A stretch of 64,000 bases of DNA from Escherichia coli (GTDB lineage Bacteria > Pseudomonadota > Gammaproteobacteria > Enterobacterales > Enterobacteriaceae): the NCBI RefSeq assembly GCF_003334405.1, contig NZ_QOWM01000002.1. One strand, 5' to 3'. This document shows, piece by piece, positions 33,333 through 41,190 of this stretch. The notes below the pieces were generated by a model that was not told where the DNA came from, did no database searches, and saw nothing but the letters and a program-made list of their open reading frames with translations. Both the position numbers and the translations under genes were made by a program. How positions within the stretch are numbered: the stretch's first letter is position 1; each line of letters opens with the position of its first letter.

Positions 33333-34193
33333 ATGAAACAACACCAATCGGCGGATAATTCTCAGGGCCAGCTTTACATTGTACCGACGCCAATCGGCAA
33401 TCTGGCGGATATCACCCAGCGTGCGTTAGAGGTATTACAGGCCGTTGATCTGATTGCCGCCGAGGATACTCGTCACACCGGTTTATTGCTGCAACATTTT
33501 GGGATTAATGCCCGGTTGTTTGCGCTGCACGACCATAACGAACAACAAAAAGCTGAAACGCTGCTGGCGAAGCTGCAAGAGGGGCAAAACATTGCGCTGG
33601 TTTCCGATGCCGGAACGCCGCTAATTAACGATCCTGGCTACCATCTGGTGCGTACCTGCCGTGAAGCGGGGATCCGCGTGGTGCCGCTACCCGGGCCGTG
33701 TGCTGCTATCACTGCGTTAAGCGCAGCGGGTTTACCCTCTGACCGTTTCTGTTACGAAGGCTTTTTACCTGCCAAATCAAAAGGCCGCCGTGATGCGCTA
33801 AAAGCCATTGAAGCGGAGCCGCGCACGCTGATTTTTTATGAATCTACCCACCGTCTGTTAGATAGCCTGGAAGATATCGTTGCGGTATTAGGCGAATCCC
33901 GCTACGTGGTTCTGGCGCGTGAGCTGACCAAAACCTGGGAAACCATTCACGGCGCGCCCGTTGGCGAGCTGCTGGCGTGGGTAAAGGAAGATGAAAACCG
34001 TCGCAAAGGCGAAATGGTGCTGATTGTCGAAGGTCATAAAGCACAGGAAGAAGACTTACCCGCCGATGCCCTGCGCACGCTGGCGCTGCTACAGGCAGAA
34101 CTGCCGCTGAAAAAAGCGGCGGCGCTGGCCGCAGAAATTCACGGCGTGAAGAAAAATGCGCTGTATAAGTATGCGCTGGAGCAGCAGGGGTAA
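33333..34193 (+). CDS. rsmI: 16S rRNA (cytidine1402-2'-O)-methyltransferase
   Basis: 286-aa ORF; motif [14 protein letters not shown]; divergent from lpoA. Confidence 0.92.
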
Positions 34194-34202
34194 CAGTGCC
34201 GA

Positions 34203-34240
34203 AGCGTTGCGTTAATCAAAACGCAACGTCTTCTTTTACC
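34203..34240. terminator. Hairpin between convergent rsmI and yraK (possible bidirectional terminator)
   Basis: aaGCGTTGCGTTaatcaaAACGCAACGtcttctttt. Confidence 0.4.
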
Positions 34241-35327
34241 GCACGATGACGGTAATGGTGGCTGTGCCCTGAAATTTTCCTGTTTCCAGCTCACCACCGA
34301 CCAGATTAACTGGCCAGGCGCGCATATTGACGGTGCCATGCCCGGAAGGATCAACGGGAAGGATACCGTTCTGAAAAGGAATATTTGCAACTCCGCCGCC
34401 GAGATTTTCAATACGAATACCGACATCGGGCACATTGTCTGAACTTCTTCGCCTGGCGACCAGGTTGTACTGGTCTACTACCCCAGTTGTACCGTCGATG
34501 CGCATTTGCAACGAGTTTTTAATCTTTGAAGTATCACCACAGTCATAAGTGATATCAAAGTCTACTGGAGTAAAACCGTCTGGCATGGCATTGCGGGTGG
34601 TAAACTTCTGACCATTGATGAATCCAAAATTAACCTTAATAACATCGCCCTGATTAATTTTGCACGACTGTGGGGCGGTGAGATTTCCCTGAATCGATAA
34701 CTTGACTAAATCATGGAAGTCACCTGTAGACGGGCTTCCCATTCCATCGACCCACGCGCCTTTAATGACGGCAATATCCGTTTTCGGAATGGTCATCGAG
34801 CCGAGAAATGGCTTGGTGACATACAGGGTAAAGGTGGTGTTCGCACCAATATTAACGGGTCCATAACGAGACGTATCACCCTGGCAAACACCCGTTTGGG
34901 TTGCAGCAGAATATACCGTGTTGTTTTTTATCTGTGTGAATCGGGTGTTAACAGAGACAACCTGGTCGGTTGTGAGTCCTGGAATGTCGTTTGCCTGTAA
35001 TGTGGTTTTAATATCCAGGCTGTCATTGAGTTTGTAATATCCTGTCTGATGTCCAGTGGTGGTAAGTACGGGGCTGACCATATAGACAAGTTTAACTGCC
35101 TTACCCGCAGAGCAGGAACAGGCGTATTGCCAGTTAGTGCTACTTAGCGTTGCAGAGGTAAACTCCCGTCCTGTCACGTTATCTGTCTGGTTCACCGTAA
35201 CATCATCAACCACACTGCTGTAATTTGTCGCACCGCTAGTGCTGTCGGCTCCACACCCTCCTGAGGAGGCATAAGCGCAGGATGTGGATATCAACAAAAG
35301 ACCTGTTATAAGAGGCGCTCTTTTCAT
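34236..35327 (-). CDS. yraK: fimbrial adhesin-like protein of chaperone-usher fimbriae
   Basis: Track ORF 34236..35585 trimmed to MKRAPLITGLLLISTSCAYA (signal peptide); last gene after the usher. Confidence 0.8.
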   Translation of the reverse strand: MKRAPLITGLLLISTSCAYASSGGCGADSTSGATNYSSVVDDVTVNQTDNVTGREFTSATLSSTNWQYACSCSAGKAVKLVYMVSPVLTTTGHQTGYYKLNDSLDIKTTLQANDIPGLTTDQVVSVNTRFTQIKNNTVYSAATQTGVCQGDTSRYGPVNIGANTTFTLYVTKPFLGSMTIPKTDIAVIKGAWVDGMGSPSTGDFHDLVKLSIQGNLTAPQSCKINQGDVIKVNFGFINGQKFTTRNAMPDGFTPVDFDITYDCGDTSKIKNSLQMRIDGTTGVVDQYNLVARRRSSDNVPDVGIRIENLGGGVANIPFQNGILPVDPSGHGTVNMRAWPVNLVGGELETGKFQGTATITVIVR

Positions 35328-35337
35328 TTTTTTATCC

Positions 35338-37854
35338 TTAATGGCACTGCGCTGTGCCTTGTAATACAGAGGTTGTAGGTTCTGAATCCGGTGTACTGAA
35401 AGCAAACTGACATTGTTGATCTGCCTGATTTCCCCAGCGTACAGTCCAGCTTTGTGATTTACTCGATATCCCAGAGAGATATAGTATGCCGCCCTCATCG
35501 ACGATACTTTGTTGCCCTGTATCATCGTTGCTGGCAAGAGCGCCAAAGGGCAACGGTTTACCGTTGCGATCGCTGACTGTAACAAGTACGCGATAACCGA
35601 TATTGGCGTTGAAACGCGCCGCTACCATTGCACCTCTGTTGGGCACCACAAACTGTGTTGTTTGTTCAAGATCGACGTTATCGGGCAGCTGCGTAGTATC
35701 TACCGAGAGACGGTTTTCCTGATAAGTTGTGAGATAAGGAACCACTGCATAGCCAAAAGGATCGGTAGCAATCCCCGGATAGTTTTGTATCCTCACGCCA
35801 GATGCTCCGTTAGCATCGATAAGCGCAAAAGCGTTGCCCAGATATTGCGAGAGCGTCACGCCATGAGGATGGATAACCACGCCGCCGGTAACGCCGTAAT
35901 TGTATTGGCTGCTGTCATTACCGTAGCTGTATCCGGCACTGAAGGTGCCATAAGGTGAACGGTAACTGGCGTTCAGGCTACTGTTATGGTTGTTATCGTC
36001 ATCCAGACTTTGTTCCAGGCTATAGCTCAGGCGACCATCATCCAGCAGTGAGCCATCAAGACGCATTTCATGTTGGGTTGGGCGATCTTTCTGGCTGGTC
36101 ATCTGATAGGAAACCCGGCTACGCGGTAACCAGCGTTCTAACGGAATACTGAGATTCAAAGAGAGTGCGCGGTCATTATTTTGATCAGTGTAGCGGCTGT
36201 ATTGATAATTCAGGCTGTAACCAACTCCCCATTGCTGGCCGGAAACCCCAACAGAGATATTCCTGTTTTTATCGTTATTGCCCCAATAGTCTTGCTGCGA
36301 ACCGGAGGCATACAGACTTACCCCATCAAATATTGTCTGGCTGATGTTGAATTGAATTTCACTTTTTTGGCGACTGTTATAGTCCCAATTGCGGGTATTG
36401 GCTTCATTAAAACTAAAATAGCCATCGTTGGTATAGCGATAGTAGCTGACAGCGATATTGGTGTTGGTTTCCGGGATATCTTTGATGTACTGCGTACGCC
36501 ATTGATAGCCATGAAAAGAGTGCTGGTTATCGAATTGGGTGTCAGCTCTGTTGATATCCATCGACAACGCGCCCAGTGCGCCAAGTGTGCCGCCGATACC
36601 GATCCCCAGCGCATAATAATCTTCAGAACCGAGCAGGCCGCCATACAGCGTAAAAGTATTATTCAAACCATATATTGCCGTGGCTTCAGCAAATTCGGGT
36701 TCCTTGCTATCACTGTTTGCATCAGCGCGATAGCGTCCAGCGGTCGCGCTATACTTTAGATGCCCAGGTCGCTGCATCATGGGTAATGAAGAATAAGGCT
36801 GGATAAAGCGACGTTGTGTACCGTCACTTTCTTCAATCGTGACTTCTAAATCGCCGCTGTTGGAAGAGGGGTAGAGATCGTTAATTTCAAAGGCACCCGC
36901 TGACACGTTGCTTTGATAGATCACATAACCATTTTGCCTGATAGTCACGATTGCACTACTGTTTGCGATACCGCGTACCGTTGGGGCAAATCCGCGCTGG
37001 CTGTTTGGCAACATATTATCGTCGGAAGCGAGTTGCACGCCAGTAAAGGTGTAGCTGGAAAAAATACTGCCGCTGGTGGCGCTTTCTCCCAGAAGCAACT
37101 GAGACTTCAACGCCTTGATATCACGTTGTAAATAACTACTGATGGTATTCCAGCTTGATGTCTGATCGTTGCGTGTCCATGTGGAATAGTTGCGTAATCG
37201 CCAGGGGCCAAAATTAGCACCATTTTGCATATTCAGGTACTGTCGTTGGCTACGATTGCCCTGGCGGTAACGGTTATCAGAACCTGTAAACGAGTAGTTG
37301 GTAAACAGCGTTGGTATACCATCGTCCCAACGAGAAGGGGAGACGTAACCTCTTGCATCACGGTACAGTGCAATTTGGGGAATGCTCAAATTAAGTTGCT
37401 GATGATTGAAATCAAATTCAGCAGCTGTACCGGGAATGATTTGTTCAAGCGAGTTGATCACGCTATCGTCATCTTTTTCAGCCAGCGCCGGGATTTCATC
37501 CACCTTAATACCCAGCTCACGTAGTTGTTCTACCGTAAACTGTGGCTGCAGAAGTTGCTCTGCATTGGCGGTAAATGTAATTTTTTTCTGTGAAACCTTC
37601 TTTTTATTCAGCCAGATATCAACCTGATAAGTTCCTGGTAGTTGTGCATATTTTTTTGAAAAACGCGACAGATCGGTTGTTTGCATACCACTTTTTGTGG
37701 TTTCCAGCATAATGGGGTCGAAATAATACTCTTCGGCGTTAGCGGTAGTGCAAAGCATGCCGCTGCCAGTGAGCACCATCGGCAAACAACGTTTGATGAT
37801 GAGCGCCAACTGTTTCGGTGTGCGTTTATGTCCCTGGTGGTGTCGTTGTGGCAT
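35338..37854 (-). CDS. yraJ: fimbrial outer-membrane usher protein
   Basis: Track ORF 35338..37929 trimmed to MPQRHHQGHKRTPKQLALIIKRCLPMVLTGSGMLCTTANA; FimD/PapC-like size. Confidence 0.88.
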   Translation of the reverse strand: MPQRHHQGHKRTPKQLALIIKRCLPMVLTGSGMLCTTANAEEYYFDPIMLETTKSGMQTTDLSRFSKKYAQLPGTYQVDIWLNKKKVSQKKITFTANAEQLLQPQFTVEQLRELGIKVDEIPALAEKDDDSVINSLEQIIPGTAAEFDFNHQQLNLSIPQIALYRDARGYVSPSRWDDGIPTLFTNYSFTGSDNRYRQGNRSQRQYLNMQNGANFGPWRLRNYSTWTRNDQTSSWNTISSYLQRDIKALKSQLLLGESATSGSIFSSYTFTGVQLASDDNMLPNSQRGFAPTVRGIANSSAIVTIRQNGYVIYQSNVSAGAFEINDLYPSSNSGDLEVTIEESDGTQRRFIQPYSSLPMMQRPGHLKYSATAGRYRADANSDSKEPEFAEATAIYGLNNTFTLYGGLLGSEDYYALGIGIGGTLGALGALSMDINRADTQFDNQHSFHGYQWRTQYIKDIPETNTNIAVSYYRYTNDGYFSFNEANTRNWDYNSRQKSEIQFNISQTIFDGVSLYASGSQQDYWGNNDKNRNISVGVSGQQWGVGYSLNYQYSRYTDQNNDRALSLNLSIPLERWLPRSRVSYQMTSQKDRPTQHEMRLDGSLLDDGRLSYSLEQSLDDDNNHNSSLNASYRSPYGTFSAGYSYGNDSSQYNYGVTGGVVIHPHGVTLSQYLGNAFALIDANGASGVRIQNYPGIATDPFGYAVVPYLTTYQENRLSVDTTQLPDNVDLEQTTQFVVPNRGAMVAARFNANIGYRVLVTVSDRNGKPLPFGALASNDDTGQQSIVDEGGILYLSGISSKSQSWTVRWGNQADQQCQFAFSTPDSEPTTSVLQGTAQCH

Positions 37855-37882
37855 TCCCTGATGACCTGTGTTTTTATATTTT

Positions 37883-38578
37883 TTATTGCAGTGGACGAGT
37901 TTCTGTCCCGGAACTGCCGCCATAATCATTGATCGCAGCCCATTTCACGTTCTTTCCGCCAGATGCAGGAAGTGGTAACTGTTTATGTTCTCCGGGCGCG
38001 ATATATTCAATTTTGCTTGTGAGATCGGTTTTATCGACTGCCAGTCCGGCAAATACGACGTAATATTCAGTTGGGTTATATATATTGAGTGAATGGTCAC
38101 TACGTTTAAATTCCAGTGATTTCCACGCATCGTTTACCCGTCCCTTCAGGTGTGCGGGGCGATAAAACATTTTGATCCGTGTTTTAAATACCAGCGTCAA
38201 CTCGTTAGCATTAACATCATCTGATTTTTTCTTTGCTGGAATGGCACGAACATTAATGTAGAACAGCGACTCTTTATTTTCAGGCAGGTTATCAGCTGTT
38301 TTAATAATTCGCAGTGATGAGTCATCGCCAGCCTCAAGACGAAATAGCGGTGGGGTTATAATAAATGGGGCACGGCTTTTACCATCTATATTATCTACCC
38401 ATGATTGCAGTAAATAAGGCGTTTCTGCGCCTTTGTTTGCGACAGGTAACGCAGCCTCTTTGCGGCTGGCATCATAGATCACTCGCGTTCGCTGTAAAAC
38501 GATTCCTCCTGCAAGCGCCTGGCCAATACAGAAGCTACACAACAAGGTTAATATCACCGCGAATGTTCGTTTTGACAT
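37883..38578 (-). CDS. yraI: fimbrial periplasmic chaperone (PapD-like)
   Basis: 231-aa ORF with signal peptide [23 protein letters not shown]. Confidence 0.88.
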
Positions 38579-38657
38579 AGTTATTTTTCAACCTGATACA
38601 ACGAGAAAGAGGAAGGAAAAGGGCGTTATCTGACAGGTCAGATAACGCCCTAACGTA

Positions 38658-39242
38658 TTAACGGTAATCCAGCGTTACGTTAACGATAGCGTCTGCTTCC
38701 CCTGGGGTGATTTCTGATGGAACTACGGTTGATACGTAGTAAGCGATGAGGTCAACATTGACAATACCATTGGATTCCGCCGGGATCTGATAAACCGTGT
38801 TATCATTGCCCATAGCATTCAGTGGCATAATGTTTCCGCTTTCCGCATCGTCAATACGGATACCCACACCTGTTGCCGCTATGCCAGCAAAAGAGCCTAC
38901 TTTTGCCAGATTAGGGAAGTTAGGGACGGTGCCATTATCTCGCGTTTCCAGCCATAGACGGAAAGACGCTTCAACGTTGCCGTTATCGTGCTCCCACCCA
39001 GTCATTGGGCAGTTAACTAAAGGAATAGTGAATGGAATTTTTGGGCTACGCTCGCCAATATTACGAAACTGTTCGGCATTATAGTGACCAAGAGCAACTT
39101 CAATTTTCTTATCAGAGTCATTGATTTCACAAGCGGATTTTAAAATCTCGCCATCAAAAACTATTTCACCATCGGTTGCAGCGGCATTACCTGCGAAAAG
39201 CGCAAGTAAGCCCGCAATAGCTGTTTTTGTAACTTTATTCAT
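38658..39242 (-). CDS. yraH: fimbrial major-subunit-like protein
   Basis: 194-aa ORF with signal peptide MNKVTKTAIAGLLALFAGNAAA; first gene of the operon, preceded by a 400-bp AT-rich region. Confidence 0.85.
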   Translation of the reverse strand: MNKVTKTAIAGLLALFAGNAAATDGEIVFDGEILKSACEINDSDKKIEVALGHYNAEQFRNIGERSPKIPFTIPLVNCPMTGWEHDNGNVEASFRLWLETRDNGTVPNFPNLAKVGSFAGIAATGVGIRIDDAESGNIMPLNAMGNDNTVYQIPAESNGIVNVDLIAYYVSTVVPSEITPGEADAIVNVTLDYR

Positions 39243-39642
39243 ATATAACCTTATCCTTGTAACAAGTACATAATCATATTTAATGTGAATATATGTTCAA
39301 CATCTTTAAAGATTATACAGGCAGAAATATTTCATTGAACATTAAATAGACTGAACTTTAAGATTATATTTATATGCAAATATTTGATATTTTCATTATA
39401 TTGATATCAATTTTCTATGTATTCAAAAGAGTATAAATGCCTGACTTTGCTGCGCCAGGGGGCGAGTCAGAATACGAGGTGATTTATTAATAGAACAAGT
39501 TATATGTATATCTAAAATTAAATTGTTGAACATAACTCCTTTTGCTATCGGCGTTATGTTCAACCCAGTCAAATGTTATTTAATATAATGCGTGACTGTT
39601 ACATAAGTTAATTTAAACATTTTGAGCAAATTTTTCATCTGG

Positions 39643-40398
39643 TTAGGTGTTAATTAAACAAATAAAGTTACTGTGCAGCCATAAAAATGAAGCCGGGATA
39701 GCGGTAGAGACTTTAGCCGTGAGAAAACGATCTGTCGCATCCTGCTTTCCTTCGCCAGTCACCAGTAACAAAACTTCGCGGGCATTGAGAATATCCTTCA
39801 GGCCTAAGGTGATCCCACGAGTCACGGGGCGACCCGCGGTTTTTAACATCTCATGTTGCTGTGTTCTGGCATCAAGTTGACTGATATGGCAGGCCGGTTG
39901 CAGGCTTTCTCCCGGTTCGTTCAGCCCAAGATGACCGTTTTTCCCCAATCCGAGAACGCATAAATCCAGACCGCCTTTGCGCGCAATCAGGTTCGTTACC
40001 CGTTCGCACTCTGTCTCATTTATCTCTTCGGAGCGAAAGCTGATGAGCTGGTCTTCACGTAGCCCCAGCGGCTGCACGATATGCTGTTGCAGGAAAGTTT
40101 CGCAGGTGCCTGGCATCGTTAATGGCAGATCCACCCATTCGTCGAGCTTCACGAAGGTGAGCTGGCTGACATCAACCTGCTGCTGGTGGATTTTTTCTAC
40201 CAGATAATGATACGTCAGTAATGGCGTGGCTCCGGTCGCCAGGCAAATCACGGCATTCGGTTTGCTACGGATCACGGCCAATAAATATTCGCTGGCACGT
40301 TCACTTAACGCCGTATAGTTTTCAACTTGCTGAAGGGTTTGCACAGGATGAAATTCCTTAAGTAAAGAGGCACCACCAGACGCAGTGCCTCGTTCCAT
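39643..40398 (-). CDS. agaI: galactosamine-6-phosphate deaminase/isomerase (NagB-like)
   Basis: 251-aa ORF; last gene of the aga operon. Confidence 0.88.
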   Translation of the reverse strand: MERGTASGGASLLKEFHPVQTLQQVENYTALSERASEYLLAVIRSKPNAVICLATGATPLLTYHYLVEKIHQQQVDVSQLTFVKLDEWVDLPLTMPGTCETFLQQHIVQPLGLREDQLISFRSEEINETECERVTNLIARKGGLDLCVLGLGKNGHLGLNEPGESLQPACHISQLDARTQQHEMLKTAGRPVTRGITLGLKDILNAREVLLLVTGEGKQDATDRFLTAKVSTAIPASFLWLHSNFICLINT

Positions 40399-41190
40399 TT
40401 ACAAAATGCCGAATGCGGAACAAACAATAGAGAGCATAAAAGTCACGCCGATTAACAGCACCGGATGCGCTTTTTTCACCCGCAGGAAGTAATACATCAG
40501 CAGGGTGTAGGCCATCGGTAAAATGTTCGGGAAGACTTTATCGAAGAAATCCTGCTGCAGCGCAACGCTGTGGGTATTGTCGATGGCAAACGATGTCACC
40601 ACGTTAATATGCACATACGAAGCGATCAGCCCGCCGATTACCGTGATCCCGAGGATGGTTGCCGAACGGGCAATCATCTGCGAGTTCTCTCGCACTTTAT
40701 CGATCGCCTTCACGCCGACTGAATAACCGACGTGGGTCCAGCCGACGCGCAGGAAAAAGATAAGCAGGTAAACGGCGAAAAATAGAATCGGCCCCAGCAG
40801 GTTTCCCTGGCTGGCAAATGATGAGCAAATTCCCGCCATAATCGGCAACAAAGTAAACCAGAAAATCGCATCGCCAATCCCGGCGATTGGGCCAAACAGT
40901 GCCACTTTGAGGCCTTTAATGGTGTCGCGGTTTTCTCCTTTTTCTTCCATCGAAATTAATAACCCCATCAGGAATCCGACCAGATTCGGGTGGGTATTAA
41001 TAAATTCGAGGTTATCTTTCATCGCCGCGCTTAAGCCCGGTTTGTCGTCCTTATAAATCTTTTTCAGGATCGGCAACATCGCCCAGGTAAAACCGCCCGC
41101 CTGCATCCTTTCGTAGTTAAAGCTCGCTTGCAGCAGCGACGAACGAAAGCCCAGACGGGTGATATCTTTTTTACTGATTTCAGATCCCAT
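40399..41190 (-). CDS. agaD: PTS mannose-family EIID component (galactosamine)
   Basis: Track ORF 40399..41337 trimmed to MGSEISKKDITRLGFRS. Confidence 0.88.
   Translation of the reverse strand: MGSEISKKDITRLGFRSSLLQASFNYERMQAGGFTWAMLPILKKIYKDDKPGLSAAMKDNLEFINTHPNLVGFLMGLLISMEEKGENRDTIKGLKVALFGPIAGIGDAIFWFTLLPIMAGICSSFASQGNLLGPILFFAVYLLIFFLRVGWTHVGYSVGVKAIDKVRENSQMIARSATILGITVIGGLIASYVHINVVTSFAIDNTHSVALQQDFFDKVFPNILPMAYTLLMYYFLRVKKAHPVLLIGVTFMLSIVCSAFGIL

Follow-up and report, generated by a model that had tools for sequence, protein, structure and literature searches.

The agaI-yraH spacer of Escherichia coli is a catalogued, H-NS-bound promoter island that probably also carries the terminator of the aga operon

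Related systems and published binding to the spacer

The yraHIJK operon is reportedly one of the cryptic chaperone-usher fimbrial operons of K-12 that were studied by Korea et al. in 2010. The AT-rich DNA upstream of the operon and its binding of H-NS fit the pattern of H-NS xenogeneic silencing known for the cryptic K-12 fimbrial operons. As at fimS of type 1 fimbriae, an AT-rich region of approximately 300-400 bp lies upstream of the major-subunit gene, short inverted repeats occur, and a candidate sigma-70 promoter is located within the region. In contrast to fimS, the yra tract has no inverted allele (more than 5,000 genomes) and no adjacent recombinase, and its inverted repeats are unrelated in sequence to those of fimS and may well be due to chance. 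The counter-silencing of SPI-1 by pervasive transcription in Salmonella (bioRxiv 10.1101/2022.04.26.489344) offers another parallel: at both loci a co-directional upstream operon, here aga, adjoins an H-NS-bound promoter. At yra only a weak-looking terminator parts aga from the promoter region, and read-through at this locus is purely an analogy.

The closest described system is the class of E. coli promoter islands (Shavkunov et al. 2009; PMC3661553), of which the yra spacer is literally a list entry, with nothing that sets it apart. Promoter islands are characterized by a very high density of transcription start points predicted by PlatProm across at least 300 bp, and have been linked to horizontally acquired genes (PMC3661553). 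Panyukov and Ozoline (2013) listed 78 of them in MG1655, and the agaI-yraH spacer is their entry 3285165_325 agaI(+)yraH(+); other islands of the same list lie beside sfmA, yadN, ybgD, elfA, yehD, yfcV and fimB/E/A (PMC3661553). For all 78 islands it was stated in general that they bind RNA polymerase with scant productive transcription, and promoter islands were reported to yield abortive oligonucleotides of 9-14 nt (PMC3661553). The agaI/yraH island carries the H-NS code 'K', which stands for binding in vivo according to the ChIP-seq data of Kahramanoglou 2011 and the ChIP-chip data of Oshima 2006; the Grainger H-NS data set has no call at this island, which is coded 'K' and not 'A' (PMC3661553 Table 1). 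The island was marked as foreign by all four of GIST, Nakamura, Lawrence and Price (PMC3661553).

Further binding data come from the genomic-SELEX experiments of Shimada et al. (2014), who found in vitro a site for the sigma-70 (RpoD) holoenzyme (PMC3946193 Table 3) as well as an H-NS site (PMC3946193) in the agaI>yraH spacer. With respect to expression, yraH mRNA was increased on overproduction of BolA (PMC4337573), and HUS-associated STEC isolates showed higher expression of yra genes (PMC6033998). The suggestion of the sequence-only reading, that the AT-rich tract upstream of yraH is typical of H-NS-silenced fimbrial promoters, is supported by the listing as a promoter island bound by H-NS in vivo (PMC3661553) and by the RpoD and H-NS SELEX sites (PMC3946193). 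Further support comes from the location of the tract within a strain-variable, low-GC fimbrial segment (see below). The tract is an already catalogued and published H-NS-bound promoter island ahead of a horizontally acquired, silent fimbrial operon.

Composition, promoter-like motifs and hairpins

All positions given here refer to the window, i.e. the whole 64-kb stretch of DNA that was analysed; window positions are obtained by subtracting the MG1655 (U00096.3) coordinate from 3,326,668. By sequence comparison, the tract is identical base for base to MG1655 3287026-3287425. A comparison over MG1655 3286200-3288100 showed one base difference, at window position 40437 in agaD (sense strand: A here, G in MG1655), which indicates that the DNA is from a near relative of MG1655 within K-12 and not from that strain. 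For the published island, the offset between U00096.2 and U00096.3 was taken to be 1,978, an assumption on which its placement in the window depends. Mapped in this way, the island consists of the ~285 bp nearest yraH and of ~42 bp of yraH itself, and the ~117 bp nearest agaI lie outside it. The features are collected in Table 1.

Table 1. Position and basis of the features in and around the agaI-yraH spacer
Feature	Window position	Strand	Basis
agaI, final gene of the aga operon, which lies upstream in the same orientation	39643-40398	-	ORF and RefSeq annotation
AT-rich intergenic tract, 400 bp, agaI stop to yraH start	39243-39642	-	27.25% GC
Hairpin, arms 39525-39539 and 39550-39564, then AAUUUAAUUUU	39512-39564	-	inverted repeat, RNA fold
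Published promoter island, U00096.2 3285165-3285489	39201-39525		PMC3661553 Table 1 and Table S1, with assumed offset
Small GC-rich island in mid-tract, weak hairpin	39440-39475	-	fold z = -2.15 (minus strand), -1.06 (plus strand)
TTGATA-17-TCAAAT, promoter predicted by Shimada et al. in the RpoD SELEX peak	39382-39410	-	PMC3946193 Table 3; located by reading the sequence
Promoter-like pair ATATCA-16-TATAAT, pointing to yraH	39390-39363	-	consensus match
Promoter-like pair TGTTCA-18-TATAAT, perfect -10 hexamer, 70 bp ahead of the ATG	39312-39341	-	consensus match only
Proximal promoter-like pair TTGAAC-16-TATGAT	39273-39300	-	consensus match only
Ribosome-binding site AAGG, 6 nt ahead of the yraH ATG	39249-39252	-	read from the sequence
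yraH, fimbrial subunit gene, first of yraHIJK	38658-39242	-	ORF and RefSeq annotation
Strain-variable segment, yraHIJK and tract, ~5.5 kb	34190-39674		empty-site alignment; 90 bp instead in yra-less strains

The GC content of the tract compares with 50.4% over the whole window, and only 0.1% of all 400-bp intervals of the 64 kb are as low in GC. The 400-bp GC minimum of the entire 64 kb begins at 39224, and low GC extends ~140 bp beyond the tract into the 5' end of yraH. The AT-rich gap between yraH and agaI that had been noticed from the sequence was thus borne out at exactly 400 bp. The "many A/T runs" ascribed to it are loosely true at best: there are 14 A/T tracts in the 400 bp, all of them short (4-8 bp), and the longest homopolymer has five residues. 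The statement that the tract has no convincing ORF holds, the longest reading frame being 49 codons long with a TTG start, and the tract is unannotated in the MG1655 record. Elsewhere in the window, ~59174-60330 and ~61191-61830 have 27-28% GC over 400 bp, matching the low GC of the yra tract. In a rough wedge-model calculation, the mean curvature of the tract ranked among the highest 4% of the 400-bp intervals, with a peak at 39627. The high-affinity H-NS motif TCGATAAATT had no match within the tract when up to two mismatches were allowed.

Promoter-like motifs were counted as hexamer pairs with at least 8 of 12 matches, a threshold count that served as a proxy for PlatProm density. By this measure the tract has 23 sigma-70-like pairs, the maximum of the 64 kb, as opposed to 2.7 per 400 bp on average. 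In a second scan, 3 promoter-like sites were found versus 4.1 expected from dinucleotide-preserving shuffles. Since promoter-like sites are not enriched over such shuffles, the motif density is a by-product of AT-richness. The pairs given in Table 1 are, by their match to the consensus, candidates for the promoter that drives yraH. Two Cappable-seq supplements contain no start sites at the coordinates of the tract among the entries listed, and promoter-island mutagenesis data published in eLife in 2024 contain neither the island coordinate nor any of four stretches of the tract that were searched for.

The palindrome ATGTTCAACAT at 39293-39303 overlaps the -35 hexamer of the proximal pair. As an operator, the palindrome ATGTTSAACAT was rejected: the window has 3 matches (1.44 expected), a number that was reached in 15 of 100 shuffles and is not significant. 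CRP-like sites were likewise discarded; the tract has one weak match (3 mismatches in 10 positions), and the two matches with 2 mismatches fall inside yraH.

Conservation was assessed in an alignment of five alleles (K-12, O157, APEC and two more). Of the 400 columns of the tract 21 were variable, as were 6 of 100 columns in the adjoining part of the agaI coding sequence. The last ~140 bp ahead of the yraH ATG were nearly invariant (3 of 141 columns variable), and the pairs at 39312-39341 and 39273-39300 were both invariant in all five alleles. In the CRE1540/CP66-6 alleles there are 6-7 clustered substitutions over the promoter predicted by Shimada et al., with both hexamers changed (TTGATA to TTCATA; TCAAAT to TAAAAT or TAGAAT). 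These substitutions weaken the -35 hexamer and improve the -10 hexamer.

A hairpin is located on the agaI side of the tract, ~80 nt past the agaI stop codon. It has a 14-bp stem and a U-rich tail, and its predicted fold (-18.9 kcal/mol, z = -4.9) was not equalled in stability by any of 200 shuffles. The hairpin arms are invariant in the five alleles. The stem is AU-rich, the U-tract AAUUUAAUUUU is interrupted, and a pattern-based terminator scan gave no call. Because of the AU-rich stem and the interrupted U-tract, termination of aga transcription at this site may be inefficient. The features of the sequence suggest that the hairpin is probably the intrinsic terminator of the aga operon and that this terminator came with the acquired segment. 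The ~117 bp nearest agaI are better read as the 3' region of the aga operon than as yra promoter DNA.

Several insertions and a further hairpin were seen in the vicinity. An IS1A element is located just past the hairpin, at window position 39516-39524, in at least four genomes (L9, ES1, HS30-1 and 2017.10.01CC); in strain L9, the one genome read, it is accompanied by a 9-bp duplication, AATTAAATT. In strain 2017-01-4CC an IS1B element stands in place of yraH, yraI and the whole tract. Between yraH and yraI, at 38620-38651 on the minus strand, there is a strong, GC-rich terminator-like hairpin with a 14-bp stem followed by UUUUCCUUCCU. This structure may attenuate transcription past the first subunit gene, and so may set the stoichiometry of the subunits.

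The strain-variable segment and its relatives

Among 5,426 complete E. coli genomes, 3,375 carry the tract (identity of 96% or more in nearly all cases); the yraHIJK segment with the tract is missing from about 38% of the 5,426. Approximately 1,800 further genomes match the agaI side alone, from about window position 39671 onward. The tract is single-copy in nearly every carrier genome (median 1 place, at most 2), and no paralogous copies were found outside the yra locus among the matches listed. A patchy distribution of YraJ over E. coli lineages has already been published (PMC5717340).

In strain 5CRE51, which has no yra genes, agaI directly adjoins rsmI. In the alignment of the two loci, the window from 34190 to ~39660-39674 corresponds to just 90 bp of 5CRE51, and homology ends within the final codons of rsmI on one side and of agaI on the other. 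The last ~10 codons of agaI thus belong to the strain-variable segment. These homology breakpoints place the tract at the leading edge of a fimbrial segment that is low in GC and varies between strains. The 90 bp of 5CRE51 (L002, 5902-5991) are unrelated in sequence, i.e. yraHIJK with the tract is a replacement rather than a clean insertion, and no target-site duplication is visible at the segment ends when the window is compared with 5CRE51. AgaI has 255 amino acids in 5CRE51 and 251 here, and RsmI ends in ...QQGE there and in ...QQG here. In the O157:H7 strain H2495 the annotation gives agaI as a pseudogene, interrupted by an internal stop (L005, 1101-1800).

A search of genome contigs with YraH yielded two loci only, a homologue in Ewingella and a probable E. 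coli contaminant contig. The yraH-like gene of Ewingella americana encodes a product of 44% identity and is preceded by a tract of ~600 bp with 27-35% GC (L010, 2300-3000). It follows from this one example that AT-rich leaders may be general for this fimbrial clade. The second locus, the 2.2-kb contig NZ_NIBV01000010.1 assigned to Xenorhabdus szentirmaii DSM 16338 (L009), is 100% identical to window positions 38023-38917 (yraH/yraI), the match being split by an insertion of ~1.33 kb with a 9-bp duplication (38448-38456). This contig is almost certainly contamination of the Xenorhabdus assembly by an E. coli laboratory strain.

Proposed function of the tract and alternative explanations

We consider it very probable that the tract has two parts, of which the one on the agaI side ends aga transcripts and the other, a promoter island coated by H-NS and bound by RNA polymerase, keeps yraHIJK silent. 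The tract would then be a non-coding regulatory region of composite nature, located at the leading edge of the yraHIJK segment that was acquired horizontally. Its first ~117 bp (39642 to ~39526, minus strand) would form the untranslated 3' end of the aga operon, in which the hairpin would terminate aga transcripts. The remaining ~285 bp (39525 to 39243) together with the start of yraH would constitute the promoter island, with overlapping sigma-70-like -35/-10 pairs. RNA polymerase would bind to this island and an H-NS filament would coat it, and because of this filament yraHIJK would be hardly transcribed in laboratory conditions; expression would require relief or counter-silencing of H-NS. 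In this proposal the base composition, the density of promoter-like motifs, the variation between strains, the hairpin and the lack of phase-variation features come from the present analysis, and the binding of H-NS and RNA polymerase is taken from the literature. What we infer is which promoter is in use, that the hairpin acts as a terminator, and that silencing by H-NS is the cause of yraHIJK crypticity.

Alternatively, the tract could be inert AT-rich filler left from the insertion, in which case the motifs and the binding of H-NS would be compositional and yraHIJK would have no working promoter of its own. Promoter-like sites are indeed no commoner than in dinucleotide-preserving shuffles, the proportion of variable columns is similar to that of the agaI coding stretch (see above), and insertions of IS1 as well as IS1-mediated deletions are tolerated. 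We nevertheless regard this explanation as improbable, as it does not agree with the near invariance of the ~140 bp ahead of the ATG (3/141 columns), with the selection of the spacer by RNA polymerase holoenzyme in vitro (PMC3946193), or with yraH mRNA being inducible (PMC4337573) and higher in some STEC isolates (PMC6033998).

By analogy with SPI-1, aga transcripts reading through the AU-rich terminator at 39512-39564 might open the H-NS-coated island and thereby couple amino-sugar use to Yra fimbriae. The aga operon is under AgaR and responds to N-acetylgalactosamine/galactosamine, so that amino sugars derived from mucin would lead to Yra expression. The gene order is compatible with such coupling and the terminator lies inside the acquired segment; still, we assign this idea a low probability.

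A small RNA or a small protein that has escaped annotation, both of which had been raised from the sequence, is very unlikely to be encoded in the tract. The longest ORF of the tract has 49 amino acids and a TTG start (39423-39572, minus strand), the others 20-21 amino acids; the sole sense-strand ORF that begins with ATG encodes 20 amino acids (39576-39638, minus strand), and in the CRE1540/CP66-6 alleles a natural deletion of 1 nt shifts its frame. With none of the ORFs conserved, the small-ORF proposal failed. For a small RNA it may be said that the hairpin at 39525-39564 could close a short transcript, and the abortive oligonucleotides of promoter islands (PMC3661553) were also counted in its favour. 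A search of Rfam at permissive E-values gave in-tract scores of 17.7-20.5 bits at best, versus gathering scores of 100-102, with E-values of at least 3. The tract is unannotated not only in the MG1655 record but also under the match in every genome among the matches listed, and the two Cappable-seq supplements list no start site within it (see above). With nothing annotated in MG1655 and no Rfam match near the gathering score, the small-RNA proposal fared no better.

The sequence-only reading also suggested a phase-variable promoter and a search for inverted repeats flanking an invertible element. Such repeats do exist: one perfect 11-nt pair (39229-39239 / 39661-39671) encloses the entire tract and another (39292-39302 / 39524-39534) encloses the segment with the promoter predicted by Shimada et al., as would suit a fimS-like invertible promoter flipped by a site-specific recombinase. 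However, a perfect inverted repeat of at least 11 nt occurs in 12.7% of composition-matched shuffles, and the arms of the outer pair fall within the coding sequences of yraH and agaI. Both hypothetical inverted alleles were constructed and searched for in complete E. coli genomes, requiring at least 80% coverage; they were found in 0 of 5,281 and 0 of 5,161 genomes, respectively. The fimS-type inverted-repeat sequence is not present in the tract, and no recombinase gene lies within the segment or adjacent to it, the annotation around the tract consisting of yraKJIH and aga genes only. Thus, the search did yield repeats, but no inverted allele in more than 5,000 genomes, and an invertible promoter at this locus is extremely unlikely. 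Phase variation by a Pap-type Dam/Lrp methylation switch or by slipped-strand repeats, for which nothing speaks except that many fimbrial operons vary in phase, is refuted at the sequence level and has a negligible probability, as the 400-bp tract contains no GATC site, of which a Pap-type switch would need two, no homopolymer above five residues and neither tandem (TRF) nor simple repeats. The absence of inverted alleles, GATC sites, repeats, an adjacent recombinase and a fimS-like repeat speaks against the suggested phase-variable promoter as a whole.

The preferred reading, a probable aga terminator followed by an H-NS-coated promoter island, makes the yra region a textbook example of a fimbrial operon that was acquired horizontally and has an AT-rich leader to which both RNA polymerase and H-NS bind, and the region is already contained in genome-wide lists. 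What the present analysis adds is that neither repeat pair has an inverted allele among the complete genomes with the locus, which number over 5,000, and that the aga operon probably takes its terminator from the acquired segment. The same segment rewrote the final codons of both agaI and rsmI.
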